Source of the DNA: a virus
Strand: one strand, 5' to 3'
IMG/VR virus record: IMGVR_UViG_3300046534_001374
Location: 1-64,000 of that record
Length of the DNA: 64,000 nt
The notes beneath the pieces are model-generated. The model was not told where the DNA came from, ran no database searches, and was given only the letters and a program-made list of their open reading frames with translations. The translations under genes and the position numbers were made by a program. The first letter of the stretch is position 1. Every line of letters begins with the position of its first letter. Positions 21,212 through 41,178 of the stretch are shown one piece after another.

Positions 21212-21259
21212 AGCGACCGTCCTGCTTTTCAGGGGAACACGAATTTTAATCTCGCCGCT
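21212..21259 (-). ncRNA. Conserved post-attenuator structured RNA, copy 1
   Basis: AGCGGC-GAGATTAAAATTC-GTGTT-CCCCT-GAAA-AGCAGG-ACG-GTCGCT; three copies in the window with covariation. Confidence 0.85.
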
Positions 21260-21268
21260 TCTGTCTAT

Positions 21269-21349
21269 AAAAAAACCCTAACCGAATGAACGGGTAGGGT
21301 CAAGAAATATTGTAATTTAGTTTATCAACTACACACAATTTCTAGACCC
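21269..21349 (-). promoter_or_regulatory. Attenuator 1: antiterminator overlapping an intrinsic terminator
   Basis: Terminator ACCCTACCCG/CGGTTAGGGT plus T run; competing GGGTCTAGAAAT/ATTTCTTGACCC helix uses the terminator's ACCC. Confidence 0.85.
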
Positions 21350-21400
21350 ATCCATCGGTGGATAGGGTTGTTGCCATTGTTGCTGGAAGATGTTCTTCAT
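21329..21400 (-). CDS. Leader peptide 1, MKNIFQQQWQQPYPPMDGSRNCV
   Basis: Manual translation; 10 consecutive Gln/Trp/Pro/Tyr codons; promoter TTGAAA-16-TATAAGTA upstream. Confidence 0.85.
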   Translation of the reverse strand: MKNIFQQQWQQPYPPMDGSRNCV

Positions 21401-21472
21401 TACGTTTTTACTTATACCACATGTTTGCACTTTTTCAAGGAAATTGTGAATTATTTTAATTGGAGTTAAATC

Positions 21473-21718
21473 CTAAGCCCTCTTCACAACTTCCCCAACA
21501 TACGAATCATAGATATGGTAATCGTCTGAACCATCATATTCTTTCACACTACCCCAAAGTTCAGAACTTGTTAATTCTTCTATAGTATCAAATCTACCTT
21601 TAAGGTCATCCATACCACCCGCAGCCTCATAGTCATTAAACGCAAACAACCAGTATCGTTTTACGTTATTACTTCTTTCAGTTATCATATTATTATAATA
21701 TGTGTTGAATTTTCCCAT
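21473..21718 (-). CDS. Putative internal head protein, paralog of 19094..19288
   Basis: Extra N-terminal MGKFNTYYNNMITE before the shared domain. Confidence 0.65.
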   Translation of the reverse strand: MGKFNTYYNNMITERSNNVKRYWLFAFNDYEAAGGMDDLKGRFDTIEELTSSELWGSVKEYDGSDDYHIYDSYVGEVVKRA

Positions 21719-21732
21719 ATTACTACTTATGT

Positions 21733-22440
21733 TTAATTTGACACAAACTTAGGAACCGACCCATTGTAATTTGTGTCGATATTTACAACGTCATCGTCAT
21801 CACAAGGTCTTGGGTTGATCATGTATAAATTAGACTCTAATACTTCCACAGGTGATTCTGTGAAGAAGAACACTGCTCTATCGCAACGACCACAGGAAAA
21901 TTTATCATTCACCATGCGGCTAACCTTTGCGTCATCCGACAACTCATCAAACTCACCACCATATTTGGCATGAGCAGATTGTCTTGTTGCGTTATCGGCA
22001 AATTCAGGATTGTCGTAATTTGGTGTTCTGCTGCGAGATTTAATATACTCCTTAACTTTAAAGGGATTGTATGTAATTGGCTCGTATGGTCTCGAACGAA
22101 TCTCTTCGATGATCTCATCCATTGTTAGGTCGATATCATCAACCTTACCATATACTAGCGATTGCACACTTTTAGTATTCTTAGCGATAATTGTTTTCGT
22201 GGTATTTTGTGCAATATAAAATTTACAGTCATCCAGAATCAATCCTTTAGTTCTGAATTTATCGCCATCGGGTCTCACCAAAACCTTATTTCCTTTTTTG
22301 ACAGACCATTGCCCGTTATACTTTCCACCCTCAAGAACGTAGTGAACACCAACGATCTCATTTTCTAGATATTGTGTATCTGGCGAAAATTCTTGGAGTA
22401 ATGTCGATCCAATCGACTGTAAGGTTTTTTCGAAATTCAT
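21733..22440 (-). CDS. Hypothetical protein, putative internal head protein
   Basis: N-terminus MNFEKTLQSIGSTLLQE. Confidence 0.6.
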   Translation of the reverse strand: MNFEKTLQSIGSTLLQEFSPDTQYLENEIVGVHYVLEGGKYNGQWSVKKGNKVLVRPDGDKFRTKGLILDDCKFYIAQNTTKTIIAKNTKSVQSLVYGKVDDIDLTMDEIIEEIRSRPYEPITYNPFKVKEYIKSRSRTPNYDNPEFADNATRQSAHAKYGGEFDELSDDAKVSRMVNDKFSCGRCDRAVFFFTESPVEVLESNLYMINPRPCDDDDVVNIDTNYNGSVPKFVSN

Positions 22441-22442
22441 TA

Positions 22443-22712
22443 TTATCTAGGTTTAAATTGTCCTAAAAGCTCGCCAACTTCGAAAAGATTAGCACCTTTT
22501 CTACCTACTCTACGAACGTTCCAAACATTGTTTTCACTGTCCCTAACTGATTGGACCCCGTGAGCAGACTGGAATCTAACTCTTTCTCTTTCCGCTAAAG
22601 GTCTGACAACTCTTTTAGAAGGGTATTTGATTAGGTGTTCCCTCTCCCATGCATGGATAGATTCCTTTATGATGGTGTTTTTAATTTCTTCTAATTTGTT
22701 GTCGAAGCTCAT
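22443..22712 (-). CDS. Hypothetical protein, putative internal head protein
   Basis: N-terminus MSFDNKLEEIKNTIIKE; TAATTA-N5-ATG. Confidence 0.6.
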   Translation of the reverse strand: MSFDNKLEEIKNTIIKESIHAWEREHLIKYPSKRVVRPLAERERVRFQSAHGVQSVRDSENNVWNVRRVGRKGANLFEVGELLGQFKPR

Positions 22713-22723
22713 ACTATTAATTA

Positions 22724-23110
22724 TTATTCTACTGTCATTAAACTGAAACTATAAGGTCTGATGCCACTAATCTCAAAATCCAATCCCAATTTATAATCCA
22801 ACTTATCAATAATTTCACCGATATCGTATCTCCATTCTTCCTTTGCGTTTTTTAAAAATTCATCATAGGAATATCTGGCATTTTTCCAACCTTCTCTTGT
22901 AGGTGTTTTTCTATTATAACCAACATTAATGGTTTGTCCGTGTGTCATGAAAACATTAATCTCATCATCATCCATATGATCCTGAACTAATGCGACTATA
23001 TCTCGTTCCATATCAGGAGTAATCTCACCTTTCTTTCTTAGTGAGGGTTCATCCCGATAGAAGGTATCTTCCGATAAAATTCCAGAAATGCATTGACCAA
23101 ATTTAGTCAT
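22724..23110 (-). CDS. Hypothetical protein, putative internal head protein
   Basis: N-terminus MTKFGQCISGILSE. Confidence 0.6.
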   Translation of the reverse strand: MTKFGQCISGILSEDTFYRDEPSLRKKGEITPDMERDIVALVQDHMDDDEINVFMTHGQTINVGYNRKTPTREGWKNARYSYDEFLKNAKEEWRYDIGEIIDKLDYKLGLDFEISGIRPYSFSLMTVE

Positions 23111-23115
23111 ACTAC

Positions 23116-23622
23116 TTATTTAGTGTAAACTTCATCCCAATATCCGGTAGGCTTCAATTCTCGATATTCCTCGTTAGAAATAATTTTCAAATCATCGGGA
23201 TTGCGATCATCTAAGAATCCCCAATCTTTCAAATTATTAGAAGTGAATATGAGTGTTCTCACATATCGTGAATGGAGCTTCTTGATACGATGAAAGCACT
23301 TAAGACTAACCCAATTAAACTTACCCTTAGCGATCTCCCTGACTTCGGTTTTTGAGTTGATATCGGATTTAAACTCTTCAGTATAGCCACCATCCATAAT
23401 ATATGACAATAATCTCCGTGGATGGTTATGCAAGAAGTGGTCGCGATCAAAAGTTAAATCCTCGCTATCTGGGGGTAAAAAGAACTCGTGGGTATCCACG
23501 GTCATGAATCCCAAATTTAACACCCGCCAACGTTTGAATAAAACAAACCCATCTTTTCTTTTAATTTCTTTAATCAGTTTCATGATGTCTTTTAAATTTA
23601 ATAGAAGATCTAAAACCTTCAA
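23116..23622 (-). CDS. Cupin-like protein (start probably MKLIKE at 23583)
   Basis: HNHP...GGYTEE...FHRI cupin motifs. Confidence 0.6.
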   Translation of the reverse strand: MKVLDLLLNLKDIMKLIKEIKRKDGFVLFKRWRVLNLGFMTVDTHEFFLPPDSEDLTFDRDHFLHNHPRRLLSYIMDGGYTEEFKSDINSKTEVREIAKGKFNWVSLKCFHRIKKLHSRYVRTLIFTSNNLKDWGFLDDRNPDDLKIISNEEYRELKPTGYWDEVYTK

Positions 23623-23932
23623 TTTTGTTAATTTGCAACAACCTGATACGACTAATCAACCTAGAGATAATCCTTCTTGGGTGCTCTCGTTCTTCGATAA
23701 AGTGATCTGCGCAGTAGCCATCGTTAGACGGGCAGGTGTCCTGAATAAAGGAAAATATATCTTCGTAAGGTTTATACTCATCGACGATTTTAGTTAACCA
23801 GAATAACACACTCTGCGCGTCGATATGTTCTGGATACATGCCGCACTTCCTACCGATCAATTTTCGGAGACTATTATAGGGCCTCTTGTTTTTCTTACAG
23901 TATCTGATGATTAGATTATCAATAGGGTTCAT
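23570..23932 (-). CDS. Hypothetical protein
   Basis: 120-aa ORF in operon context. Confidence 0.65.
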   Translation of the reverse strand: MNPIDNLIIRYCKKNKRPYNSLRKLIGRKCGMYPEHIDAQSVLFWLTKIVDEYKPYEDIFSFIQDTCPSNDGYCADHFIEEREHPRRIISRLISRIRLLQINKIEGFRSSIKFKRHHETD

Positions 23933-23933
23933 T

Positions 23934-24208
23934 TTATACGTATTTGTTGAATAATTCTATCAGAAGATCTCCATGACAGGCTTACACCAACAACCAAGCA
24001 CCTTTCCTTCCAACTCATGCAGGCTATCTAATATTTCTCCCTTTGTCAATATTAATTCTCGATATTTTTCAATGACCTGTTTTCTGGTCCCATCCTTGCC
24101 TATCTCGTAAGGATTACCCCGTTTAGAAGGTCTCCCTATGTAAATGTCGTGAAACTCTCTACAGTGGACTATGGAAGGCTTTATAGGGGCATGGAAAAGA
24201 TCACTCAT
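23934..24208 (-). pseudogene. DUF4326-family gene, frameshifted near its C-terminus
   Basis: YIGRPS..GNPY and LGCWCKP in one frame; the expected CHGDLL continues in another frame to a stop at 23934. Confidence 0.75.
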
Positions 24209-24230
24209 ATTTATACGAGTGTAACGGAGG

Positions 24231-25406
24231 TTGAAAAATTGTCAAATAAAAGTAATTTTTATATATTGTTTTACTTGTCGTCGCGCAATATATAAGGTTA
24301 TGATGGCGCTGATAAGTGTATTTTACTCTTGGATTATATCTTGTTTAGATAAATTGATATTACGAATTTTCGGACACACCACAAATAACGGTTCTGGCGC
24401 GGGAGATAATGACGGCGGCTATTATACCGATTATAAGTTGCTTCGAGCTAAAAAGGATGTAATCGGTGTCGGCCAGCACAGAACTGGTTGGCCTTGGGTT
24501 TTTAACAATCTATCCATTTACGAATCCGTAGACGGTATTTTATTCGATGATTTTCTTGAACAAAATTTTTGTTATAAACCAATCCCCGACATCTATAGAG
24601 AGCCTTGGATTGCAATTTTCCACCACCCCAAAAATATCCCACTTTTTGGAAATTATAAAGAAAACCTAAATAGAGTTTTCGAAATGGAAGAGTTTAAAGA
24701 AAGTTGTAAAGAACTCAAAGTAGCTATCGCGCTTTCCGACGAACTGGCTGAATGGCTCAGAGAAAAATTAGATTGTAAAGTTGTATCTTTGAAACACCCA
24801 ATCGGACTTGAATGCAACCCCCAGTGGGATATTGAAAAATGGAATAAGGATAAACAAGCGTATCAAATTGGATTTTATCTGAGAAACACTCGATTGATTG
24901 AACAGATCCCCAATGTTGATGATATTGCATTCAACAGACTGTGGTCGGACATGACTTGGTTGAAAAACTATGATACAAAGGTTTCCAAATACTGGTCTAA
25001 CCATGGCGAAACATCTTTCGATTTCGAAAGTGAAAACTATTTTAATACAAGATGTGGTTATAGACTAGCCGAAGATCATAATATTAACTTTGTTCTACCT
25101 TCCCGATATGATGAAATCTTAACGTCTGGTGTTGTGGTTGTGGAGTATTTTGAATGTTCAGCATCGAATGTTATTCTTGAATGTATCGCTTCAAACACCC
25201 CGATCATTGTAAACCGTATATCTGCAACTGTCCAATATCTTGGAGAGGGCTATCCTCTGTTCTTCGACCATCCTGAAGAGATTCCTGATCTATTCGCTAA
25301 AGTGGCAGAAGCTAATGCTTACTTGAAGACCATGGACAAAGAAGATATTAAAATTGACACCTTCGTCCAAAATATACTCAAAGAAGTAAATCAGATTAAA
25401 AGATAA
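24231..25406 (+). CDS. Glycosyltransferase-like protein (true start probably ~24300)
   Basis: GT-B-like C-terminus SASNVILECIASNTPIIVN...YLGEGYPLFF; adjacent to a sulfotransferase. Confidence 0.55.
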   Translation: MKNCQIKVIFIYCFTCRRAIYKVMMALISVFYSWIISCLDKLILRIFGHTTNNGSGAGDNDGGYYTDYKLLRAKKDVIGVGQHRTGWPWVFNNLSIYESVDGILFDDFLEQNFCYKPIPDIYREPWIAIFHHPKNIPLFGNYKENLNRVFEMEEFKESCKELKVAIALSDELAEWLREKLDCKVVSLKHPIGLECNPQWDIEKWNKDKQAYQIGFYLRNTRLIEQIPNVDDIAFNRLWSDMTWLKNYDTKVSKYWSNHGETSFDFESENYFNTRCGYRLAEDHNINFVLPSRYDEILTSGVVVVEYFECSASNVILECIASNTPIIVNRISATVQYLGEGYPLFFDHPEEIPDLFAKVAEANAYLKTMDKEDIKIDTFVQNILKEVNQIKR

Positions 25407-25409
25407 AAT

Positions 25410-26066
25410 ATGAAATCCAAATATACAATTGTCTGCGGAAGTAGGAGTGGTTCGACTCTTCTTTGTGATTTATTAAAATCAACCAAAAGAGCGGGCGATC
25501 CTCAAGAGTTTTTTAACGAAGAACTTATTCAGGATTTCGGAAGATTTAATAAAGGAGATGGATATGTTGACGGTATCATTAATGCAACAAAAACCGAAAA
25601 TGAAGTTTTTGGTGTTAAGGTTGTCGGGTGTTTTGACCAATTGGAGGGTTTACTTGAAAGTAAACTTAAACTAACACACTACGTTTACTTAGAAAGAGAA
25701 AACAAAGTTGCCCAAGCCATCTCCAGATATAAATCTTGGCAAACCAATAAGTGGCATAGTAATACGCCGCTTGATGTTGATTATTCTTACGGAGATATTA
25801 AATGGTGTTATGATGACATCTTAGCGGAGGATATTTTCCTACAAAAATTCATCATAGGAAAAAATGCTCTGCGAATTTCATACGAGAAAGATCTCTTAAA
25901 CAATAGAGAACAAACTGTGAGGTGCATTCTTAACCATCTAGGAGTTAGCAGCAAGGATCTACCGGAACTCAAAACAGAACGAGTTAAGATTTCAAACTAC
26001 GCATCCAAGGAAATGGAGAAGCGTTTTAAAGAGGAATTAAAGACTAAGCAGATTTCCTCTGTTTGA
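25410..26066 (+). CDS. Stf0-family sulfotransferase
   Basis: RSGSTLLCDLL, GDPQEFFN, LERENKVAQAIS and SYE motifs. Confidence 0.88.
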   Translation: MKSKYTIVCGSRSGSTLLCDLLKSTKRAGDPQEFFNEELIQDFGRFNKGDGYVDGIINATKTENEVFGVKVVGCFDQLEGLLESKLKLTHYVYLERENKVAQAISRYKSWQTNKWHSNTPLDVDYSYGDIKWCYDDILAEDIFLQKFIIGKNALRISYEKDLLNNREQTVRCILNHLGVSSKDLPELKTERVKISNYASKEMEKRFKEELKTKQISSV

Positions 26067-26276
26067 AAATAGTGTAGAAAGTCTGCGACTCTATTCCGGT
26101 TTCCATCCAAGTAATCTCATAAAAACCACTCGCTCATCCAATAACTCATCTACACTTTCGTTCCAAGCTTTGATTTCTTTGGGATCTGTTTGTTCTTTTA
26201 GAAGAGCTACACTTTCTAGTAAAACTAGATCAATGTCGCCGATTTCTTGTTGCGGTGTTAATTCTTCACCCATAAA

Positions 26277-26615
26277 TTATACAATAAAATGTTCTTTGTA
26301 TTTGGAATTTTCGTAGAGGTCTTTCAACTGTTTCTCTAAACAAGTATAGTCCAAAACAAATTCACAATACTCGTTGTTATAACAATAATCGGCCAACTCC
26401 TTAGCATCATCCACTCCATAAGTTTTAAGAATATGTTGTGGAACTTTTAGATTTTGAAAATCTGATTTTCTCAAGAATCTATAACCTGTATTAGAAGGAT
26501 CGGCTAATGTATCTATAGAATCTATTACATGTATTATATCGAGTGAAGGTGTGCTGAATAATACATACGATGAATCGTCTACGGGTTCAAAAAACTTTAC
26601 TATGATTGCTTTCAT
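26277..26615 (-). CDS. Hypothetical protein
   Basis: 112-aa ORF with upstream TTGACT promoter-like sequence. Confidence 0.6.
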   Translation of the reverse strand: MKAIIVKFFEPVDDSSYVLFSTPSLDIIHVIDSIDTLADPSNTGYRFLRKSDFQNLKVPQHILKTYGVDDAKELADYCYNNEYCEFVLDYTCLEKQLKDLYENSKYKEHFIV

Positions 26616-26662
26616 TCATTTAAAATAACAGAATTTGAAGATAAGTCAATGTAAAACGTTAA

Positions 26663-26932
26663 TTAAATTTTCGAATCCCAACAATAATCGTCAACACAAA
26701 ATATTGAGAACGCATCATTAGGATTTTCGTTTAAAGATGCTCTGGGTCGGATGTCGCCAAAGTCATAATAATCACTTGGTCTATAATTCATCTCATATTT
26801 TTCGTAAGGATTAAAACCATTTTTAAATTCGCTATAACGCATCTTAACTACGGTTCTGTAACCACACCAGCCGCCATTTCCATGGCATTCTGGTTCTATG
26901 ATGTATACGATTTTATTTCCGTGTATTTTCAT
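26663..26932 (-). CDS. Hypothetical protein
   Basis: 89-aa ORF downstream of tRNA cluster 2. Confidence 0.6.
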   Translation of the reverse strand: MKIHGNKIVYIIEPECHGNGGWCGYRTVVKMRYSEFKNGFNPYEKYEMNYRPSDYYDFGDIRPRASLNENPNDAFSIFCVDDYCWDSKI

Positions 26933-26949
26933 TTTTATTATTTTATAGT

Positions 26950-27024
26950 TGTTCCCTAGCTCGGATGTGCGCCGAGTTATTTCCTTTCACAGAGGAAGAT
27001 TTTAACTACATAAACTACTAAGGA
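26950..27024 (-). tRNA. tRNA-His(GTG), atypical T loop
   Basis: TTCCT-CTGTGAA-AGGAA arm; T loop CGCACAT; no encoded CCA. Confidence 0.7.
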
Positions 27025-27037
27025 GGTCTAAAATATT

Positions 27038-27112: not shown

Positions 27113-27115
27113 AGT

Positions 27116-27192: not shown

Positions 27193-27218
27193 ATATATTT
27201 TTAAATGTTATTTCATTT

Positions 27219-28791: not shown

Positions 28792-28839
28792 AGCGTCCGT
28801 CCTGCCCGAAGGGGGATCACGAATTTTAATCTCAACGCT
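28792..28839 (-). ncRNA. Conserved post-attenuator structured RNA, copy 2
   Basis: AGCGTT-GAGATTAAAATTC-GTGAT-CCCCC-TTCG-GGCAGG-ACG-GACGCT. Confidence 0.85.
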
Positions 28840-28847: not shown

Positions 28848-28913
28848 AAAAAAGCCTTACTCGTTAAAGTAAGGCAAATTCAATCTTAGATTCTAAAACA
28901 AATATTACCTTAC
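28848..28913 (-). promoter_or_regulatory. Attenuator 2: antiterminator overlapping an intrinsic terminator
   Basis: Terminator GCCTTACT/AGTAAGGC plus T run; competing GTAAGGTAA/TTGCCTTAC helix begins at the leader stop codon. Confidence 0.88.
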
Positions 28914-28984
28914 GGAAGAGTGGTATCCTCTCCGTGTTCTACTACGACTGTTGTGCCGTGGTTGAAGTTAGTAACGTTGTTCAT
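28910..28984 (-). CDS. Leader peptide 2, MNNVTNFNHGTTVVVEHGEDTTLP
   Basis: Manual translation; 14 consecutive His/Gly/Thr/Val/Glu/Asp codons; promoter TTGATT-16-TATAAATA upstream. Confidence 0.88.
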   Translation of the reverse strand: MNNVTNFNHGTTVVVEHGEDTTLP

Positions 28985-31008: not shown

Positions 31009-32259
31009 TTAAACAGAACATTCGATTAAGTATCGAATATTAACTTGCGCGTTGTCATAAACAATAAATTCATCATTATGTAGACCAGTATTTCTAGCTA
31101 GTGCTGTGATGCTGTCAAATCCTCTTGGTGGTGATCCTGTTCCTCTTGCGAGATTGGTTTTACCCATTGCGAAATCACACACGAAGAGCCAAGCTCCATC
31201 ATTAGATGCGCCTTGCCCCCATCGTCCGAGACTGTATCCCAGACTTTTAGATGAACAGTTTGCGCCATAAACTCCATTACCAAACATCTTACCAGCAATC
31301 CTAGCAGAAGAAGGTGGTGCGATAGAGAGACCTGATTTAAAAATTGAAAGGCAATTCGCAATTCCAGTTCCGTGGTAATATTGTTCCACATTTCCCCAAC
31401 CTTTATTGTCGAAGGACTTATCCATCTCACCTAAAGTTACTTCATAAATATTAGCAACTTTAACATTACCATAATGATGCATAGACTTTTTGGTTTTATT
31501 GAATTCGTCTTCCAACCTTTTATAAATCGATTTATCTGTGAGAGGTTCTACCGAAACATCAAATACCTTTTCTTCAGGCTCATCATTTCCTTTGTCATCC
31601 TTTTTGGTGGTCGCAGATTTAACGCTAACCTCTAAAGAATCTAGGAGAGCTTTCTGTTTCTTAATTCCGTCTAGATTTGCGAAATTAGAATCTACAAAAC
31701 TCTGAACTTTTCTCCCTACATTCTGAGGAACGATTTCGAGGAAATTGCAAGCGTAATTATAGAATGTTTTACAACTCTTATCTTTAAGAACAAACATCTT
31801 ATCCAGAAGTTCACTTGCTTCAATAAGGCCATCGCCAGTTACAATACCGAGAGGTGTTTGAAACAACCCACTGGAGGAGTTGAAGGTAATTTGAGTGTTG
31901 GCTGTAATCTGGTGGATATTGGCTTTAGACAAACGCGAAATAAGCTTCTCAGCGAGCGTTGAGGAAGTTTTGATTTGATTCCTTGCGAGTTCATGAACAG
32001 AACCCGAAGGGACGTTAGAAACGCTTACAGACTCAGAGAGGGTCTTTGTTCTAACGTAACCCTTCTTCTCTTTGGATTTAATTTTAGATCTTAGCTTACT
32101 TTCGCCTTGCCACGATCCTTTTTGTGGATTGGCATTTCCGACTCTGCCCCAACGAGCATCCCAGTGACCATCTTCATAGAGATCCACTTCATAAAATTTA
32201 TTATTGTTAGCGACGATGGTGACGCAGATCAATCTGACTGTTTCTTTAATTTTGGACAT
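31009..32259 (-). CDS. WGR-domain PARP-like ADP-ribosyltransferase
   Basis: NNKFY...WGRVG (WGR); catalytic H-Y-E triad in YHGT, GKMFGNGVY...KSLGY and NDEFIVY. Confidence 0.92.
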   Translation of the reverse strand: MSKIKETVRLICVTIVANNNKFYEVDLYEDGHWDARWGRVGNANPQKGSWQGESKLRSKIKSKEKKGYVRTKTLSESVSVSNVPSGSVHELARNQIKTSSTLAEKLISRLSKANIHQITANTQITFNSSSGLFQTPLGIVTGDGLIEASELLDKMFVLKDKSCKTFYNYACNFLEIVPQNVGRKVQSFVDSNFANLDGIKKQKALLDSLEVSVKSATTKKDDKGNDEPEEKVFDVSVEPLTDKSIYKRLEDEFNKTKKSMHHYGNVKVANIYEVTLGEMDKSFDNKGWGNVEQYYHGTGIANCLSIFKSGLSIAPPSSARIAGKMFGNGVYGANCSSKSLGYSLGRWGQGASNDGAWLFVCDFAMGKTNLARGTGSPPRGFDSITALARNTGLHNDEFIVYDNAQVNIRYLIECSV

Positions 32260-35120: not shown

Positions 35121-35126
35121 AATTTT

Positions 35127-35204: not shown

Positions 35205-35210
35205 AACTGT

Positions 35211-35408
35211 TTACTCGTCCCAATCCGACCAAGCTGTGATGATACAAGTGGGCGAAACGACACCCAATGTATGGATAATCTCCCCTTTGTATGACTCTTC
35301 AAAATCACATTGGAATAATCGATATACATTCACTGCCCAACTGAAGGGGAAGAGGATGTAAAACACGATTATTAGGGTGGTGAGGATGGTTTTATATGTG
35401 GTGTCCAT
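35211..35408 (-). CDS. Small membrane protein
   Basis: N-terminal hydrophobic helix; CDFE..YKGEIIH motif. Confidence 0.65.
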   Translation of the reverse strand: MDTTYKTILTTLIIVFYILFPFSWAVNVYRLFQCDFEESYKGEIIHTLGVVSPTCIITAWSDWDE

Positions 35409-35445
35409 AATGGTATTATACTTTATTTTCTTAATTAATCAAGGA

Positions 35446-35739
35446 TTATTTGAAATATTTTACTGCTCGCTTTTCGAGGGCGTCATACGCCTCCAAAATA
35501 GGTTTCTTTCGTGATTCCAAATCCGGCTTTTCTTCTGAACGAGATTCGCCCAAAGCAAACTTGGCTCGATTAACCGCAATCGCGGTTCCAATTTTACGAT
35601 CAAAGCGATCACTCGAATCTGGATTCACCAAGGAATAACCAAATCCAAATTTACCATCTTGGTTTACCACTACCGCAACCCCAGTTGGGTTGTTATTTGA
35701 ATCTCGGATGAACGTCTTTAATACTGTATTTTCTGACAT
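35446..35739 (-). CDS. Hypothetical protein
   Basis: 97-aa ORF with DRFDRKIG motif. Confidence 0.65.
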   Translation of the reverse strand: MSENTVLKTFIRDSNNNPTGVAVVVNQDGKFGFGYSLVNPDSSDRFDRKIGTAIAVNRAKFALGESRSEEKPDLESRKKPILEAYDALEKRAVKYFK

Positions 35740-35881
35740 GTGAGTATTCTACTTTAGTTTTCGTTTTTTGTCCAGAACTATTTTGAAGAAATTATTTCCT
35801 TGGGGGGATTTTAACCCGCTCTTCTTTTCGAAGTTTCAGCACAGCGGGGTTTTATACCTGCTACGTTTAATGCTAAGGATT

Positions 35882-35958
35882 TGGCCCACCTAGAAGGATT
35901 TGAACCTTCGGCCTCCAAAGTTTCAATTTGGAACTCTACCAGACTGAGTTATAGGTGG
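35882..35958 (-). tRNA. tRNA-Phe(GAA)
   Basis: CCAAA-TTGAAAC-TTTGG arm; CCA. Confidence 0.88.
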
Positions 35959-35984
35959 TTTGTGATTGTTGGTTGTTGTTATTA

Positions 35985-36070
35985 TGGTGCATCAGGCGGG
36001 GGTCGAACCCGCATGCTCTAGGAGCGCGACCGTTTAAGGATCGAATGTATACCAATTCCATCACTGATGC
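35985..36070 (-). tRNA. tRNA-Leu(TAA)
   Basis: Loop CT-TAA-AC, variable arm, A73, CCA. Confidence 0.9.
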
Positions 36071-36072
36071 GT

Positions 36073-36148
36073 TAGTAGTTTCCCCCAGATTCGAACTGAG
36101 AAACATCAGTTATTAACCGACTGCTTTACCTAATTTGCATAGGAAACT
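36073..36148 (-). tRNA. tRNA-Ile(AAT)
   Basis: GTCGG-TTAATAA-CTGAT arm; 3' end A-CTA. Confidence 0.75.
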
Positions 36149-36151
36149 ATT

Positions 36152-36238
36152 TGGTGTGCATAATCGGACTCGAACCGATAAGGGATTACTCCCACTAGAA
36201 CCTAAACCTAGCGCGGTTACCATTTTCGCCACACGCAC
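36152..36238 (-). tRNA. tRNA-Leu(TAG)
   Basis: Loop TT-TAG-GT, variable arm, CCA. Confidence 0.9.
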
Positions 36239-36311
36239 ATACCGTTGTTTTGTCAGACTGGGACAACGAGAAACCCTTTACATATTCATCTACCACTGGT
36301 AGCGAACTAAG

Positions 36312-36893
36312 TTATTTTATAAATTTAATAAGACCTTTCTCCATTAACTCTTGGACTGTGGAAGTATCTTTCTTTTCATATACCGCAAACAACCAAGGCT
36401 TTTCGGTAATTGCCCGTTCTAAATCTGGGTCGTCATTATGTAATGATTGGATTTCGGGGGGTAGATCTCGAAACTCGGTCTTGGTGACATCGTTACGCTT
36501 CTTATAGTAATATTCCCACACTTTACTACTATCTTCTGTATTGGCACCACCAGTATGTCCATACATTAGAGTGGAAGAACCTATTTTATGTTTTTGGTAA
36601 GTTACCAGTTCCATTGCAATGTCGTATCCTAATGCGCCATAACCCTTACCCCTATAATTACCGTATGATCCTGTATGCCCATTCCAAAATCCATCAAATC
36701 TCGACTCCAGCCTCATAGAGAAAACTAAGTCTTTTTTTACTTTATTAAATATATCAAAATCCCACTGCTCCCTATTCGACGAATGTTGGTTCGCCATCCT
36801 AACGAAAATCCGAGTTTTTGGATCACTGTGTAATTCAGACACATCTGCCATACCTTCGGTTAAATCATGTAATAAAGTTTCAAAACGATCCAT
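36312..36893 (-). CDS. GNAT-like protein, putative internal head protein
   Basis: YRGKGYG motif A; N-terminus MDRFETLLHDLTE. Confidence 0.55.
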   Translation of the reverse strand: MDRFETLLHDLTEGMADVSELHSDPKTRIFVRMANQHSSNREQWDFDIFNKVKKDLVFSMRLESRFDGFWNGHTGSYGNYRGKGYGALGYDIAMELVTYQKHKIGSSTLMYGHTGGANTEDSSKVWEYYYKKRNDVTKTEFRDLPPEIQSLHNDDPDLERAITEKPWLFAVYEKKDTSTVQELMEKGLIKFIK

Positions 36894-36936
36894 ACATCTA
36901 CTTATCTGTTACACACTACTGGTAGCGAACTAATTC

Positions 36937-37203
36937 TTATGGAAAGATCAAAGCAACTTTTCCGCTTTCGTGTTCTATTTTAAATTCTTCCCACTCTACT
37001 TCATCATCAAAACCAGCGTCATCGGCAGACCAATTTGGGTCGTATAGCTGGGCATCCCAACCAGAACTACCTTTAACATAAAAACATTCGGTATGGACAC
37101 CCGCAATAGTTTCATAACCATTACCTTCGGCATTCTTTTGGAGGATGATTTCCATATCGTCAGGGATATCTTTAATTTGTTCTTTTAGTTTTCCAATCGT
37201 CAT
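36937..37203 (-). CDS. Hypothetical protein
   Basis: MTIGKLKEQIKDIPDD...AEGN small acidic protein. Confidence 0.65.
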   Translation of the reverse strand: MTIGKLKEQIKDIPDDMEIILQKNAEGNGYETIAGVHTECFYVKGSSGWDAQLYDPNWSADDAGFDDEVEWEEFKIEHESGKVALIFP

Positions 37204-37456
37204 TATTTTATATTAACATTCCGATTATACTTTTCAAGTGTTTCTATAAAATGAATCTCACATTCGGACTATACCGCTCACATACATCGTAGACTTGAGA
37301 CCAATCTACGTGAGTTTTGAATTGTCGGAGATCAAGCCGACTCACATTAAATTTAAACTAGGTTAGCACGACACACTTTAGTTTTACGAACCACGACATC
37401 GTGCTGTCTCAGTCCACTTATGCGATCCCTATCTCAGGGGTATCCACCGTTTAAAT

Positions 37457-37529
37457 TGGTAGCTCGTCCGAGAATCGAACTCGGCTGGAAAGCATATGAA
37501 ACTTTCTACTTCACCTGAAGTAACGAGCA
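37457..37529 (-). tRNA. tRNA with CAT anticodon (Met or Ile2)
   Basis: AAAGT-TTCATAT-GCTTT arm; short D arm; CCA. Confidence 0.78.
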
Positions 37530-37532
37530 GTT

Positions 37533-37790
37533 TTAACCTGCATTAAAAGAACTACAAATAATTGTGCCTTCTTTTTGTCTTTGGTTTGCTTTACCTATAC
37601 ACTCAACTGTAATTGAATTCAGATCAGATGTCCAACCACAATTCCGATTGTGTGACATATCAGTGTCTTTATAGAATTCGTGATTAGGGTAATAAGTAAG
37701 TGCTTTTTGTTTTGATTTTGAAACTACGACAAAGGAATCATAACAGTCGTAACTTTTATTTTTATCTTGTTGGAGTAAGTAAATGTTCAT
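37533..37790 (-). CDS. Hypothetical protein
   Basis: YDCYDSFVV...CSSFNAG pattern. Confidence 0.7.
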   Translation of the reverse strand: MNIYLLQQDKNKSYDCYDSFVVVSKSKQKALTYYPNHEFYKDTDMSHNRNCGWTSDLNSITVECIGKANQRQKEGTIICSSFNAG

Positions 37791-37958
37791 GTTGGTATAC
37801 TACCGTGCTAATGAGAATTTGTCAAGCCAGTTTCTAAATTTATTCTCATCTTCGGTCAACCTAGAATCCTTAAAACATATGAAGCCCATACTCGTTTCTC
37901 ATCGAGTAATAACTCTAACGTATCTTCTGTATCAAACTCCAACGCTTCATATTTTGCA

Positions 37959-38228
37959 CTATAAATTCTCTGATATCTTAGGGGTTATGGCGGGAGGAAT
38001 CGGGACTTGAATCACCTTTGACTTGAAGTAGTTTGTTTTACCACAAACCACACAATCCCCTGTCCAATAGTCTCCATCTCTTTGAGTTGAAAATTGTTTT
38101 ACCTCATCCCCCTGTTCCGAATAGTGTTTTACCTCATCTTCTTCTGCCTCTAATTCAGACTTACATTTGTTGCAAGTGCATGTATATACAGTTTTGGAAA
38201 TATGCGTTCCTCTTTTGATTACTTTCAT
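37959..38228 (-). CDS. Zinc-ribbon hypothetical protein
   Basis: CNKC...CVVC motifs. Confidence 0.65.
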   Translation of the reverse strand: MKVIKRGTHISKTVYTCTCNKCKSELEAEEDEVKHYSEQGDEVKQFSTQRDGDYWTGDCVVCGKTNYFKSKVIQVPIPPAITPKISENL

Positions 38229-38277
38229 ATTGAATTGGTAGTGATGAATAACTCCTTAAAAAGCTAGGAGTATAGTT

Positions 38278-38367
38278 TGGCAGACTAGCATAGCATCGAA
38301 CTATTACCCCATCTCTGACGCACTATGCTTTTCAAGAGCATTTGAGGAGCCGACCTCAGACTAGTCC
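38278..38367 (-). tRNA. tRNA-Ser(TGA)
   Basis: ATGCT-CTTGAAA-AGCAT arm, variable arm, G73, CCA. Confidence 0.85.
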
Positions 38368-38371
38368 ATTT

Positions 38372-39034
38372 TTAAATCTTTTTGATATACATTTGCCCCT
38401 TAATATTTTCGGGAACTCTCATTCCATACGTCATACTAAGAAAATCTCCCGAAAAATCATTAGGATGCATATACTTTATTCTGTGGATAAAATTCTTAAT
38501 GTAAAATTTGATACCAATACCGTCAATACTAACTCTGCATTCACCAATTCTATTCGGCTCTATCGCAAAGGTGGTTTTAATATCAGGATCAAATTGGCTA
38601 ACTATAGTATATCTTCCCGCATTCAAAAGGTTGAATATAATTCTCTTATGGATTTCTCTTTCTATCACAGGTAAAGCTCTATCGAACTTATTGTCACCAG
38701 AAGAAATTCTCCTGTTGCACATTTCCATACCGTCCACAATAAAGTCTGTGGTCATTTTGGTTTCGACATATGGTGCAAATACCACGCTATCCTTCAGATC
38801 TCGGGATAACATGCTGACAACATCATTCTGGTCTGTATAGTCTACGCGAGGAAGACAACTAGTGATGTTTGCCATACTTTTGGTTGAGTTGATTAAATCG
38901 ACCCACAAACCATAATCAAAAAATTTCTTGTGACTGAATATGGGTGACGGTTTGACACCGCCAATATTCAGTTTAGAATATGTTACTACTGGAGTAGCGA
39001 GGAGTAGTGTTGATAAAAAGGTTCGTTTTTTCAT
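38372..39034 (-). CDS. Hypothetical protein with weak gp23-like segments and signal-like N-terminus
   Basis: MKKRTFLSTLLLA; VVFAPYV, EREIHKRII and MTYG segments. Confidence 0.55.
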   Translation of the reverse strand: MKKRTFLSTLLLATPVVTYSKLNIGGVKPSPIFSHKKFFDYGLWVDLINSTKSMANITSCLPRVDYTDQNDVVSMLSRDLKDSVVFAPYVETKMTTDFIVDGMEMCNRRISSGDNKFDRALPVIEREIHKRIIFNLLNAGRYTIVSQFDPDIKTTFAIEPNRIGECRVSIDGIGIKFYIKNFIHRIKYMHPNDFSGDFLSMTYGMRVPENIKGQMYIKKI

Positions 39035-39040
39035 AAATGT

Positions 39041-39184
39041 ATGTTGTTTGATCCTAGTAAGGAGGAGTTACAGGAAAAAATTTCTAGTGGGCTACCTTTA
39101 ACTAAAATTGGTCAGTATTATGGTGTTTCGGTTAATGCTATCCGAAAACGTTGTAAAAAACTACAAATAAGTTTCAAAAGGTAG
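39041..39184 (+). CDS. Stand-alone HTH / homing-endonuclease remnant (47 aa)
   Basis: PSKEEL...TKIGQYYGVSVNAIRKRCKKL. Confidence 0.6.
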   Translation: MLFDPSKEELQEKISSGLPLTKIGQYYGVSVNAIRKRCKKLQISFKR

Positions 39185-39186
39185 AT

Positions 39187-39262
39187 TGGCTCTAGATTGT
39201 GGTAACGCTCCACACGCTCTCTTCTTAACAGGAAGGCCCGTTCGCTTGCTCGGTCATCTAGA
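39187..39262 (-). tRNA. tRNA-Asn(GTT), atypical T loop
   Basis: Loop CT-GTT-AA; T loop AGCGTTA; G73; CCA. Confidence 0.8.
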
Positions 39263-39265
39263 ATT

Positions 39266-39340
39266 TGGCAGTATAGGAAGGACTCGAACCTTCATTTTAT
39301 GGATCAACAATCCACGGCATTGCCATTATGCTACTATACT
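39266..39340 (-). tRNA. tRNA-Asn(GTT)
   Basis: GTGGA-TTGTTGA-TCCAT arm; CCA. Confidence 0.85.
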
Positions 39341-39456
39341 ATGTTTATAAGCCATAAGGTCTAATCTTTCGATCTACAGGGGTAGCGTAGTGATCATCTG
39401 GTATGCTGGCCAGACATCGTTATCCTTATTGTTGTTTAAGCGTATGCTTATAAAAT

Positions 39457-39532
39457 TGGTCCGCTAGGAGGGAGACGATCCCCCAACCTTGTCGTTAAAA
39501 GCGACCTGCTCTGCCTATTGAGCTACTAGCGG
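39457..39532 (-). tRNA. tRNA-Lys(TTT)
   Basis: Loop CT-TTT-AA; CCA. Confidence 0.88.
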
Positions 39533-39631
39533 TTTAAAAATTGTGTCGTATGGGTATCGATCCCACTTATTACCTAACCTCCACTTTTCACAGCTTTGGA
39601 TGCCACCTGATACGACCCTTAAAATATGACT

Positions 39632-39707
39632 TACTCTAACCTCTGGAATTGAACCAGAGTCTGCCGCTTTATAAGCCGCCGTAATTTCCAATTATACCAA
39701 GTTATTT
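39632..39707 (-). pseudogene. Degenerate tRNA, anticodon ATA or TAT
   Basis: D and T arms intact, GCGGCTTATAAAGCGGC arm, broken acceptor stem. Confidence 0.5.
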
Positions 39708-39749
39708 CTGTCCACAACCAAAGAGCAAATAACTCTCTCAGATCATGTT

Positions 39750-39824
39750 TGAAGTCAAGAGTTAGATTCGAACTAACGACACTCCCTCAATTAAAGGCTG
39801 CTCTAACCACTGAGCTATCTTGAC
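39750..39824 (-). tRNA. tRNA-like RNA with malformed anticodon loop, paralog of 35127..35204
   Basis: Canonical D and T arms and acceptor; GCCTT-TAATTG-AGGGA arm; 3' T-TCA. Confidence 0.6.
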
Positions 39825-39828
39825 TTAT

Positions 39829-39868
39829 GGTATTTTACGGGTCTACCCGCTCCTGACTATACCTAGCC
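39829..39868 (-). ncRNA. Inter-tRNA pseudoknot element, copy 2
   Basis: 37/40 identical to copy 1, with a compensatory A-T to G-C change in the hairpin. Confidence 0.7.
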
Positions 39869-39870
39869 TT

Positions 39871-40043
39871 TGGTGTCCCATGTGGGGATTCGAACCCTAC
39901 TCACATTATATCCTTTGTCAATTACTAATGCATTTTCTTTGACACTCTATTTCCTGTGGGCCGATACTTCATCTTACGACTTCTTCGGGCACACTTCTTA
40001 CACTACGTTTAAGTAGTAGCTCTAGCCATTGAGCTAATGGGAC
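39871..40043 (-). ncRNA. tRNA-like RNA with ~95-nt variable-region insert
   Basis: GTCCCAT/ATGGGAC-A-CCA, D arm, ACTAC-TTAAAC-GTAGT arm, long insert, GGGTTCGAATCCC. Confidence 0.7.
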
Positions 40044-40113
40044 TTTTAATTCTCATAACAAATACAAGTCAACATGAAATTGTAATGTTGTAAAGGTTTA
40101 TCTTAACTTAATT

Positions 40114-40206
40114 TGGAGCGGAGGAACCGATTCGAACGGCTATCTGTTCTCAGTTGTATAAGGTTAGGCTTGGATTCGCCCTGTGCTGCCATTACACCAC
40201 CTCCGC
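40114..40206 (-). tRNA. Atypical tRNA-Gly(TCC)-like RNA
   Basis: GCGGAGG/CCTCCGC-T-CCA Gly-type acceptor; 8-nt loop GAATCCAA; unstructured long variable region. Confidence 0.55.
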
Positions 40207-40215
40207 TTTTTACTG

Positions 40216-40608
40216 TTACCAGTCAATATTTATAACGTATTCTCCTGCTTCGATCAAGCCCTTTTTGAATAAATCGTCAAAGAGTATTTCGATGTTTGGA
40301 AAGAAATTCCGTTCCCAAAACATTTCAAGAGTCCAAGCAGAGTCGGATTCTGAAAGTTGTTCTGTGGGATCTCGCTCAAGCCAGTCTTTCAAAGAAACAG
40401 AACCATACTCATTTTTAATGATATCCTCTAGGACATATCCTTCTAGGACATATCCTTCTTCAACATCTTTCACAGGAACTTTTACATATTGGGTTCCTCT
40501 TGCTCTACAACCAAATTGTTGCTGAAAGCTAAAAGGTCTTTTGTAAGTTTCCTCGATGAAATCGTCCAAATCTGAGACTTGGACATATTTTATGGTTTCG
40601 TATTTCAT
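40216..40608 (-). CDS. Hypothetical protein
   Basis: 130-aa ORF ending GEYVINIDW. Confidence 0.7.
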   Translation of the reverse strand: MKYETIKYVQVSDLDDFIEETYKRPFSFQQQFGCRARGTQYVKVPVKDVEEGYVLEGYVLEDIIKNEYGSVSLKDWLERDPTEQLSESDSAWTLEMFWERNFFPNIEILFDDLFKKGLIEAGEYVINIDW

Positions 40609-40632
40609 GTTTTATGTTTTATGGTTTAAATT

Positions 40633-40929
40633 CTATTCGAAATACCGTTCGTTGTCAAGAGGAAACCATCTGTTTCTCACTGACTTGGCGTAGTCTTCAA
40701 CACTACCCTCAAACTCATCGAACACTGTTTTGACTCGGCCATCTACTGAATCACCGTATGAATGGAACAATTCTAGAAACTCGATTGCCCTTCCGGCAAC
40801 ACTAATATGGCGTTTAAAATCACCTACTGGTGGATTCTTCTTCGCGCAGAAATCATCTACTGTTGCCAGTAGGCATTCTGCGATGTAAATTGCTGCCTTC
40901 GTCGGGTTGCATACGTTGATTCTCTTCAT
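40633..40929 (-). CDS. Hypothetical protein
   Basis: 98-aa ORF with upstream TTGACA promoter-like sequence. Confidence 0.65.
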   Translation of the reverse strand: MKRINVCNPTKAAIYIAECLLATVDDFCAKKNPPVGDFKRHISVAGRAIEFLELFHSYGDSVDGRVKTVFDEFEGSVEDYAKSVRNRWFPLDNERYFE

Positions 40930-40973
40930 GTCGTTAAGGTATATTGTTTGGGTTGTTTTGTCAACGTTTAAAT

Positions 40974-41048
40974 TGGTTACAGGAGAAGAAATCGAATCTT
41001 CGTAGAAAGGGATATGAACCCTATCAGGGAACCAACACCCTTCCTGCT
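40974..41048 (-). tRNA. Initiator tRNA-fMet(CAT)
   Basis: 1:72 mismatch; three G-C pairs closing the TTCATAT loop; CCA. Confidence 0.85.
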
Positions 41049-41129
41049 ATTTGGAGATTAACAACAAACTCAATCATTGTCAACCTTTATCAACAGGAAA
41101 AATCATTTTTGTTTCTCCTGTCTTTCTAT

Positions 41130-41178
41130 AGCGAACGTCCTGCCATTTCTGGGGGCACCGAATTTTAATCTCTCCGCT
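41130..41178 (-). ncRNA. Conserved post-attenuator structured RNA, copy 3
   Basis: AGCGGA-GAGATTAAAATTC-GGTG-CCCCCA-GAAA-TGGCAGG-ACG-TTCGCT. Confidence 0.85.

Follow-up and report, generated by a model that had tools for sequence, protein, structure and literature searches.

What is the short sequence that lies directly behind each of the terminators heading the tRNA blocks of this phage, and what role could it play? In the window, i.e., the whole stretch of 64,000 nt analyzed here, the tRNA blocks are headed by three units made of a promoter, a mini-ORF and an intrinsic terminator, with exactly one copy of an element of about 48 nt behind each of them (Table 1). The preliminary description of this DNA had located three copies and placed their starts 6-9 nt past the terminator U-tract; we recovered all of them at the same coordinates, reading 5′→3′ on the minus strand, with measured gaps that span exactly this range. 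The element-bearing phage is of ice-metagenome origin.

Table 1. Coordinates of the element copies and of the features that surround them in the window.
Feature	Position	Strand	Description
Element copy 1	21212..21259	(-)	48 nt; covariance model 82.1 bits
Copy 1, closing helix	5′ strand 21254-21259; 3′ strand 21212-21217	(-)	
Copy 1, invariant GAG-AUUAAAA-UUC	21241-21253	(-)	
Copy 1, junction GUGUU	21236-21240	(-)	
Copy 1, distal stem	21221-21235	(-)	GAAA cap
Copy 1, junction ACG	21218-21220	(-)	
Promoter-like site TTGACA-17-TAAAGT	21161..21189	(-)	22 nt past copy 1, 9 nt ahead of next ATG
Intrinsic terminator 1	21269..21300	(-)	hairpin + U7; element 9 nt beyond U-tract
Leader ORF 1	21329..21400	(-)	23 codons; run F-Q-Q-Q-W-Q-Q-P-Y-P-P; 11/22 residues in downstream tRNA set, p = 1e-3
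Promoter of leader ORF 1, TTGAAA/TATAAG	21411-21438	(-)	
Element copy 2	28792..28839	(-)	48 nt; 78 bits; variable closing-helix pairs U-A, U.G; cap CC-UUCG-GG
Intrinsic terminator 2	28848..28875	(-)	9-bp stem, U6; element 8 nt beyond U-tract
Leader ORF 2	28910..28984	(-)	24 codons; 16/23 residues in downstream tRNA set, p = 6e-4
Promoter of leader ORF 2, TTGATT/TATAAA	28992-29019	(-)	
Element copy 3	41130..41178	(-)	49 nt; 73.8 bits; cap CCA-GAAA-UGG
Intrinsic terminator 3	41185..41217	(-)	12-bp stem, U6; element 6 nt beyond U-tract
Leader ORF 3	41247..41324	(-)	25 codons, K/I/M/S/N/L/R/F-rich; 19/24 in downstream tRNA set, p = 6e-3
Promoter of leader ORF 3, TTGCAA/TATAAG	41342-41369	(-)	

The element and its attenuator context

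The window contains exactly three occurrences of the 14-mer GAGATTAAAATTCG, and a covariance model of the element run against the whole 139.6-kb contig found only these 3 sites, at 74-82 bits. About 30 of the 48 positions are invariant; copy 3 carries a single extra G following UUC. The G+C content of the element is 52-54%, compared with 23-33% in its flanks and a window mean of 38%, and A/U-rich single strands lie on either side of it. Contigs from four sequencing runs, which represent the same strain at low coverage, revealed no differences in the elements. None of the runs listed for this DNA is recorded as an RNA run.

A promoter, a short ORF and an intrinsic terminator are present in 4/4 units, i.e., the three of the window phage and one on the metagenome contig L016 described below. 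In every leader peptide, the amino acids that match the tRNA block downstream of it are over-represented (p = 6e-4 to 8e-3), while the off-diagonal comparisons of leaders with the other blocks are not significant; leader ORF 2 includes a run of 14 residues drawn entirely from H, G, T, V, E and D. The terminators ahead of the elements are thus plausibly leader-peptide attenuators, and the literature searched apparently contains no description of such attenuators before phage tRNA arrays. The only other strong minus-strand terminator of the region, at 44164-44189 behind an ordinary gene, is not followed by an element. No strong intrinsic terminator was seen between any element and its tRNAs, and many promoter-like sites are located inside the tRNA arrays, where they feed the same arrays. 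Sites similar to the promoter-like site past copy 1 (Table 1) are also found downstream of the L016 copy and, further away, of copy 3.

Structure and covariation

The closing stem, AGCGnn/nnCGCT in DNA letters, was previously claimed to covary, and our alignment agrees: four pairs are invariant, and positions 5 and 6 vary yet remain paired in copies 1, 2 and 3 (G.U, U-A and G.U at position 5; C-G, U.G and A-U at position 6). The chance of pairing in all 6 variable cells is about 0.003. One G.U pair is found in the closing helix of each copy, where the plus strand would have an A-C mismatch. The second stem, with its C/CA internal loop, was seen in all copies as CC, a bulged C, 2-3 bp, a tetraloop, CA and GG, and its interchangeable caps (CU-GAAA-AG, CC-UUCG-GG and CCA-GAAA-UGG) are as described before.

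Two parts of the preliminary description held only partially. The GAG-AUUAAAA-UUC segment, presented as an invariant hairpin, is indeed invariant; its pairing is weak (predicted probability <=0.23), and it displays no covariation because its sequence never varies. For the same reason, the three-way junction is one of two possible folds, given that it depends on this weak GAG/UUC helix; in the alternative, CGU:ACG extends the distal stem and a 12-nt invariant bulge remains. The three-way junction is thus a plausible, putative fold of the element.

The folding energy is unremarkable (z-scores of 0.1 to 1.0), so the case for a structured RNA is made not by energy alone but by covariation, tetraloop swaps and conservation. 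Selection on RNA structure, as first suggested, is borne out by the minus-strand G.U wobbles, the compensatory changes, the GNRA/UUCG caps and the tetraloop-only swap of the fourth copy. Compared with the Rfam covariance models, as the preliminary description proposed, the element matches no family of Rfam 15, and no known family with another function emerged. A scan of the window at gathering thresholds returned tRNAs only, and scans of all four copies at E <= 10 returned no match to the element other than a partial one of the L016 copy to CRISPR-DR43 (18 bits, E = 3; gathering score 35 bits). On comparative grounds, and with a data set of only 4 sequences, 3 of them paralogues, the element is established as a genuine structured RNA under strong constraint, which the minus strand encodes and which belongs to a family outside Rfam.

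Several other readings were tried and discarded. Protein coding was rejected given that the frame opened by the internal GUG ends at its fourth codon, UGA, in copy 1, and that the extra nucleotide of copy 3 shifts it; a TTG-started 150-aa ORF runs through copy 2 because copy 2 alone has an open frame. A CRISPR repeat or RNA anti-CRISPR was suggested by GUGUUCCCC of copy 1, which resembles the start of a type I-E repeat; this sequence differs in the other copies, however, and the Rfam match is noise. A preQ1-I-like A-rich tail is present in only 2/4 copies, with no model match; the GGA that could form a CsrA site is paired; a promoter within the element is contradicted by the closing-helix covariation; and an HDV-like threading was dropped.

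The fourth copy and the search for others

A pattern scan of metagenomes identified a fourth copy on L016, a 2.5-kb contig in which the same setting is arranged in the order leader ORF, terminator, 15 nt, element, ORFs and tRNAs. This copy is identical to copy 2 at 44/48 positions, and all four differences correspond to the replacement of UUCG by GAGA. The tRNAs with the same anticodon in L016 and the window phage are only 54-67% identical, the protein common to both is 51% identical, and no homologue of the remaining two L016 ORFs was found in the genome of the window phage. L016 comes from a distantly related phage that shares almost nothing else with the window phage. Since the primary-sequence constraint across L016 and the other copies is so strong, contact with a conserved macromolecule would fit.

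The other match of the metagenome scan, L015, is a chance match in coding sequence. Four exact-pattern scans of IMG/VR returned chance or coding matches only, and no real further copy came from a single pattern scan run over 185,579 prokaryote genomes (the matches of both were checked with the covariance model). The element was not found in 76 IMG/VR loci surrounding homologues of the neighbouring phrog_27943 protein, in contigs carrying close and distant homologues, or in the whole genomes of Cellulophaga phi4:1, Maribacter Molly_1, megaphage LR756502, Vibrio phiKT1024 and Pseudomonas Pyxpy02. The ORF following copy 2 had no homologues in the protein database searched, and Pfam and PHROGs were uninformative for the element-adjacent ORFs, which have no detectable family.

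Proposed function and alternative explanations

We tentatively propose, as a reasonable possibility, that the element acts in cis to let read-through polymerase reach the tRNA genes by means of a conserved host component. When the matching tRNAs are scarce, ribosomes would stall on the leader and the attenuator terminator would be read through; the element would then be present only in transcripts that extend past this terminator. That it is made only after read-through had been stated before, and two features support it: the halves of the closing helix need to be on one RNA, and the gap between the U-tract and the helix has no conserved promoter. At the head of the read-through transcript, the element may bind RNA polymerase or an elongation/Nus-type factor, and the polymerase could thereby traverse the 0.45-1.1 kb of ORFs lying between each attenuator and its tRNA genes. 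These intervening ORFs would be poorly translated under the same condition, leaving the polymerase exposed to Rho-type premature termination. Because the element is placed behind the terminator and not in front of it, it would not defeat the attenuator itself.

This tentative cis role draws on the one-to-one link with attenuators, the strand-specific covariation, the cap swaps, the G+C island, the match of each leader to its own tRNA block, the L016 copy and the contrast with Cellulophaga phage phi4:1. In phi4:1, a like attenuator is followed by the first tRNA 5-6 nt later, with neither an element nor intervening ORFs, whereas both the window phage and L016 have intervening ORFs and carry the element. 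Suppression of intrinsic terminators is argued against by the lack of strong ones downstream and by the many internal promoters, and an anti-Rho role is logically attractive; only such a role would be needed because no strong intrinsic terminator separates element and tRNAs. Against the cis read-through role, the promoters inside the arrays would bring unmodified polymerase to the same tRNA genes. No phage-encoded NusG, NusB or sigma-70 region 2 was found in the 65%-complete contig.

A somewhat doubtful, though possible, alternative is a processing or stability module that marks where the read-through RNA begins, whether as an RNase handle or as a small self-cleaving ribozyme of a new kind. 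The leader might then be cut away by the element itself or by a host or phage RNase, leaving a protected, structured 5′ end. The element occupies the exact place, 5-9 nt past the U-tract, of the first tRNA of phi4:1, which is an RNase P substrate, and its A/U-rich single-stranded flanks would suit such a module; nevertheless, a 3′ CCA or discriminator for RNase P is missing, and the RNases E, P and III of the hosts need little primary sequence, which leaves about 30 invariant positions unexplained. For a ribozyme, the closing helix, the two internal helices with swappable caps and the invariant junction nucleotides form a typical architecture, with the topology of a type III hammerhead and junctions compatible with catalysis. 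However, no copy matched the hammerhead, twister, twister-sister, pistol, hatchet or HDV-like families of Rfam at E <= 10, the hammerhead core CUGANGA/GAAA is missing, and by inspection there is no consistent upstream strand for an HDV-type P1. It is unlikely that a stable small RNA is freed from the read-through transcript, as the neighbouring tRNAs are, to act in trans, with an invariant stretch of 12-18 nt as seed or decoy. The long unpaired invariant stretch GAGAUUAAAAUUCGUG is held between stable helices, a conserved host target (RNA or protein) would account for conservation across distant phages, and stable non-tRNA species, such as the T4 species 1 and 2 RNAs, are known in phage tRNA clusters. 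By sequence inspection, the loop UUAAAA exactly complements the anticodon-loop UUUUAA of tRNA-Lys(UUU), e.g., at 39457-39532, although this may be chance in an A/U-rich loop. Even when as many as 3 mismatches were allowed, the window contained no complementary target site, defined processing signals and a CCA end are missing, and the RNA would be produced on read-through only.

An operator or aptamer, in which a phage protein or small ligand on the invariant junction controls the ORF or promoter immediately downstream, is similarly improbable. Variable helices around an invariant junction are the classic aptamer pattern, an ORF begins 31-51 nt downstream of copies 1 and 2, and the lambda N gene lies directly 3′ of nutL. 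Nevertheless, the downstream ORFs differ in 4/4 cases and belong to no detectable family, no riboswitch family matched, and no conserved expression platform (terminator or helix sequestering the start site) follows the element. Additionally, the promoter-like site between element and ORF in copy 1 and L016 means that most ORF transcripts would not carry the element. Very unlikely is a DNA-level element, whether a mobile regulatory cassette spread by recombination like the promoter-early stem-loop (PeSL) cassettes of T4-type phages, a promoter specific to the phage or a site where a transcription factor binds ahead of the next promoter. The element is always located after a terminator and before the next promoter-like site, is almost unchanged in a phage with next to nothing else in common, and contains TAAAAT, resembling a -10 box, in its invariant block; the L016 copy joins a copy-2-like core to a copy-1-like 3′ flank, suggesting exchange. 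Against this, half of the variable closing-helix pairs are G.T wobbles, and on one strand only, the stable tetraloops that form the caps (cUUCGg, GNRA) are specific to RNA, an internal promoter would leave the covarying 5′ half of the closing helix untranscribed, and the -35-like matches upstream of copies 2 and 3 are poor.

As an accessory RNA of a tRNA-array attenuator circuit, the element would be the first of its kind. It occurs exactly where ORFs separate attenuator from tRNA genes, and between the two distant phages it is better conserved than their tRNAs. We consider it doubtful, though conceivable, that it represents a new class, i.e., a 48-nt factor-independent antitermination/anti-Rho RNA or a new self-cleaving ribozyme that would license stall-activated tRNA operons. 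If active, it would add a new minimal antitermination RNA or ribozyme class; even without such activity, it would still represent a new family of phage RNAs whose sequence is unusually strict.

Comparison with known systems

Operons for rRNA and tRNA use boxA/boxB antitermination to shield untranslated transcripts from Rho. Like the lambda nut and rrn sites, the element is a ~40-50-nt module, one per operon, with a hairpin beside a conserved linear stretch, and its 3′ CGCU and A/U-rich sequence vaguely recalls boxA CGCUCUUA. The CGCU is paired in the closing helix and followed by AUAAAA, UUUACA or AUAGAA; this stretch is half buried in the helix and would be only a weak match to E. coli boxA. 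The nut/rrn signature of a single-stranded GCUCUUUA-type boxA with a recognised boxB loop was not found: the CUCUUU core is missing from the boxA-like bases, which are paired, and the loop of the sole variable hairpin changes class (GAAA, UUCG, GAGA), so that the cap is freely exchangeable, in contrast to the boxB loop, through which recognition takes place. The 65%-complete contig yielded no gene for an N-like protein, NusB or NusG.

Among small ribozymes, the likeness lies in a size of ~50 nt, a helix junction with invariant nucleotides, exchangeable caps and a phage intergenic location next to tRNA genes. In contrast, the element has none of the defining cores of hammerhead, twister, pistol, hatchet or HDV-like theta ribozymes: its junctions, GUGNU (GGUG in copy 3) and ACG, do not make a hammerhead core (CUGANGA between stems I and II, GAAA between stems II and III, a cleavable NUH), and for the 6-7 bp P1 of an HDV-like double pseudoknot no strand consistently complementary to GUGNU is present in the spacers ahead of the four copies, with no Rfam match.

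The first tRNA of each attenuator-gated array of phi4:1 (KC821632.1) is also a compact folded RNA with a closing helix just past the U-tract, at 5-6 nt compared with 6-15 nt for the element. The element differs in having no cloverleaf, T-loop, anticodon or CCA, and it is unlike any of the 28 tRNAs in the window. ARAGORN and RF00005 make no call on it, and, compared with the 7-bp acceptor stem, T-loop and 3′ discriminator plus CCA of a tRNA, its closing helix has 6 bp, its cap is a tetraloop and its 3′ flank is AUAA, UUUA or AUAG.

PeSL, reportedly described by Arbiol et al. in 2010, is said to be a repeated module of a terminator-like hairpin and a promoter between small early genes of T4-type phages. 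The hairpin and promoter neighbourhood of the element is similar, a possible vehicle for recombination between phages; PeSL consists of a promoter and a simple stem-loop, whereas in the window phage the terminator is separated from the promoter by an additional RNA of 48 nt that shows compensatory changes.

HK022 putL and putR are factor-independent processive antitermination RNAs, conserved through their contact with the host RNA polymerase; they are ~65-75 nt long, form two long stem-loops and directly follow the promoter. The element resembles put as a folded RNA that would act in cis, with one copy per operon early in the transcript, and in combining stems with conserved unpaired bases, on which put function depends. 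It differs from put in its 48-nt size, its architecture and its location 130-150 nt from the promoter behind a regulated terminator, and shares no sequence or model similarity with it; the element is smaller than put or EAR and unlike either.

Conserved RNA element downstream of the attenuator terminators

Three minus-strand stretches of the window are copies of one 48-49-nt element, at the positions reported in the preliminary description, and we identified an independent fourth copy in L016, a metagenome contig of 2544 nt. A strong intrinsic terminator lies ahead of each of the three copies, and in the printed sequence the gaps from its U-tract to the element are 9, 8 and 6 nt for copies 1, 2 and 3, in agreement with the 6-9 nt first described. 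As also suggested there, a covariance model was built from the three copies; it matched these three sites, and no others, in the whole 139.6-kb contig, and additionally L016 (72.7 bits). The 14-mer of the invariant block has three exact occurrences. The element is therefore tied one-to-one to the attenuator terminators, and it forms a G+C island (52-54%, vs 23-33% in the flanks).

Parts of the element and locations of the features discussed
Feature	Location	Sequence or layout
Element, copies 1-3	window 21212-21259, 28792-28839, 41130-41178, minus	
Closing helix		AGCGnn ... nnCGCU
Invariant block		GAG-AUUAAAA-UUC
Junction, invariant block to distal stem		GUGnU; GGUG in copy 3
Distal stem		CC / bulged C / 2-3 bp / tetraloop / CA / GG
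Second junction		ACG
Element stretches		GAGAUUAAAAUUC and ACG
Invariant loop	window 21243-21249 etc.	UUAAAA
tRNA-Lys(UUU)	window 39457-39532	UUUUAA (anticodon-loop bases 33-38)
Leader mini-ORFs, units 1-3	window 21329-21400, 28910-28984, 41247-41324, minus	
Leader mini-ORF, L016	982-1038	
phi4:1 units	L124 (KC821632.1 85800-91400), about 1230-1396, 2170-2370, 3950-4126	
Gene starts behind TTGACA-type promoter-like sites, examples	window 40929, 42295, 37790, 32837, 32568, 30452, 26615, 21151	
Gene starts behind the second motif	window 1731, 8990, 16791, 22712, 46780, 48400, 54139, 55855, 56406	(T)ATAATTA(A/G)
Start of ENA contig L105	1-60	AGCGTTGAG
phrog_27943 protein	window 40216-40608, minus	
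PARP-domain protein	window 31009-32259, minus	
T-arm-like pieces	window 41380-41650 and 40960-41060, minus	GGTTCAACCCC, GGGTGCAAATCCC, GGGTTCATATCCC

The copies form a minus-strand RNA structure under constraint. In the closing helix, four pairs are invariant across the copies, while the two variable pairs change on both sides (G.U / U-A / G.U and C-G / U.G / A-U), which bears out the covariation claimed earlier; all six independent variable cells pair (chance of about 0.003 under a uniform model), and when the partners are offset by one to three columns, pairing falls from 96% to 29-53%. Every copy contains one G.U pair, for which the plus strand would have an A-C mismatch; the RNA is therefore minus-sense, like all genes and tRNAs around it. 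The second stem does carry interchangeable caps, namely GAAA, UUCG and GAAA on differing closing pairs in copies 1-3 and GAGA in L016; GAAA and UUCG are RNA-specific stable tetraloops. Covariation, strand-specific G.U pairs and stable tetraloops together support the proposed selection on RNA structure. The folding energy by itself is unremarkable (z-scores of 0.1 to 1.0).

The preliminary description also placed a hairpin at GAG-AUUAAAA-UUC. The invariance of this sequence held, but the hairpin is unproven, with a predicted GAG/UUC pairing probability of at most 0.23; hence, a three-way junction is only a plausible model of the fold. Alternatively, the distal stem could be lengthened by CGU:ACG, leaving GAGAUUAAAAUU as a 12-nt bulge. 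The one-base insertion of copy 3, located exactly between UUC and GUG, would slightly favour the junction model.

Leader peptides and gene starts

Ahead of each of the three terminators, we found a good sigma-70-type promoter and an ORF of 23-25 codons that begins 7-17 nt past the -10 box. The leader peptides are enriched for the amino acids of their own downstream tRNA block, with 11/22, 16/23 and 19/24 residues in units 1-3 (p = 1e-3, 6e-4 and 6e-3) and 10/17 in L016 (p = 8e-3); in all cross-comparisons with the tRNA blocks of the other units, none was significant. Leader 2 contains 14 residues running, all drawn from H, G, T, V, E and D, precisely the six amino acids that the eight tRNAs behind it carry. 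This own-block enrichment supports the units being leader-peptide attenuators. In L016 as in this phage, the attenuator and the tRNAs are separated by 0.45-1.1 kb of ORFs. The leader-attenuator circuit, irrespective of the element, is apparently undescribed.

The genes of the window have no Shine-Dalgarno sequences. In at least 15 of them, TTGACA-16/18-TAnnnT ends 6-11 nt ahead of the ATG, and many have a spacing of 17 with an end 6-9 nt from the ATG; since this promoter-like sequence sits just ahead of the start codon, these genes probably give leaderless or near-leaderless early mRNAs and are separately transcribed. A second recurrent motif precedes the ATG of many other genes, on either strand, by 4-7 nt and may represent another promoter class likewise giving leaderless transcripts.

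The 130-aa protein encoded behind copy 3 belongs to family phrog_27943 and has the invariant motifs FQQQ.GC..RG and IDW. Its homologues in Vibrio and Pseudomonas phages (L027, L028) adjoin genes for RNA ligase, polynucleotide kinase or CCA-adding enzyme, and this neighbourhood hints that the protein may function in tRNA repair or metabolism. A 416-aa protein encoded midway through the tRNA region has both a PARP catalytic domain (E = 6e-27) and a WGR domain, the latter weak. The T-arm-like pieces in the non-coding sequence around copy 3, with no ARAGORN or Rfam call, probably represent either tRNA genes in decay or tRNA-like RNAs.

Fourth copy and distribution

Relative to copy 2, the L016 copy has only four changes, all in the cap (cUUCGg to cGAGAg). 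Its surroundings match those of the three window copies, with the order 18-codon mini-ORF, terminator, 15 nt, element, A/U-rich spacer (containing TTGACA-17-TAAGGT), two ORFs and five tRNAs. The only neighbour protein common to both phages is 51% identical, the other two L016 ORFs have no homologues in the 139.6-kb contig, and same-anticodon tRNAs are 54-67% identical; by these measures, the two phages are distant. With four changes relative to copy 2, the element is thus conserved far above the tRNAs, which reflects either very strong sequence constraint, or transfer between phages, or both. In L016, a core like copy 2 is found together with a 3′ flank like copy 1.

At the gathering threshold, Rfam 15 returned tRNAs only, and at E <= 10 it returned for all four copies nothing except a partial noise-level CRISPR-repeat match; the Rfam check proposed earlier accordingly yielded no known family. 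Inspection showed neither the hammerhead nor the HDV-like ribozyme core, and for twister, pistol, hatchet and the other ribozyme and riboswitch families Rfam gave no match at E <= 10. Nor does the element have the features of nut, put or tRNAs, and it is not coding, since the frame meets a stop in copy 1 and is displaced in copy 3. No further copies were found in four IMG/VR pattern scans or in 185,579 prokaryote genomes. The same held for 76 loci surrounding homologues of the neighbouring protein, for several Logan/ENA contigs and for five complete phage genomes. The phage occurs in ice metagenomes, where the runs examined contain the same strain with 0 variants within the elements. The element is a new RNA family of narrow distribution.

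Contig L105 begins with the same 9 nt as copy 2, ahead of a tRNA and of the homologous gene, whose phrog_27943 protein shows 71% identity. The remainder of this start does not fit the element and gave no covariance-model match; the identity could reflect a decayed relative or chance.

Possible function

We infer that the element is transcribed only on read-through, i.e., when the matching tRNAs are scarce. The explanation that we favour, possible but doubtful, is that it acts in cis and protects the elongation complex from premature, Rho-type termination. Since read-through occurs precisely when translation fails, the polymerase would have to cross untranslated ORF sequence before the tRNA genes, protected by the element. 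Its location behind the terminator is consistent with this role, because a signal ahead of the terminator would defeat the attenuator; in addition, Cellulophaga phage phi4:1, with no intervening ORFs, has no such element. Against this proposal, we found no strong intrinsic terminators in need of overriding and no Nus-like gene in the phage contig, internal promoters also feed the tRNA arrays, and the element is unlike put, nut or boxA.

So strict a primary sequence points to catalysis or to contact with a conserved macromolecule rather than to a mere structural RNase handle. A processing module or new ribozyme is rather unlikely. That the element is excised as a trans-acting RNA is improbable. 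The six bases of its invariant loop are perfectly complementary to the tRNA-Lys(UUU) anticodon loop, but no further target turned up. We give equally little weight to an operator bound by a protein or ligand, and consider a DNA-level cassette or site very improbable.

Comparison with Cellulophaga phage phi4:1

The closest cultured match of the ribonucleotide reductase is that of phi4:1 (60%), a cultured Bacteroidota phage that has three promoter/mini-ORF/terminator units with Bacteroidetes-type promoters. Its leader peptides list the tRNAs behind them, e.g., Q, R, L, H, E and P before Pro-Glu-Gln-His-Leu-Leu-Arg, and two of its mini-ORFs sit near the annotated hypothetical proteins gp075 and gp076. 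The layout of these units is the same as in the phage studied here; however, the first tRNA of phi4:1 lies 5-6 nt past each U-tract, with neither element nor ORFs between. In this phage and in L016, the element fills the slot held by the first tRNA in phi4:1.
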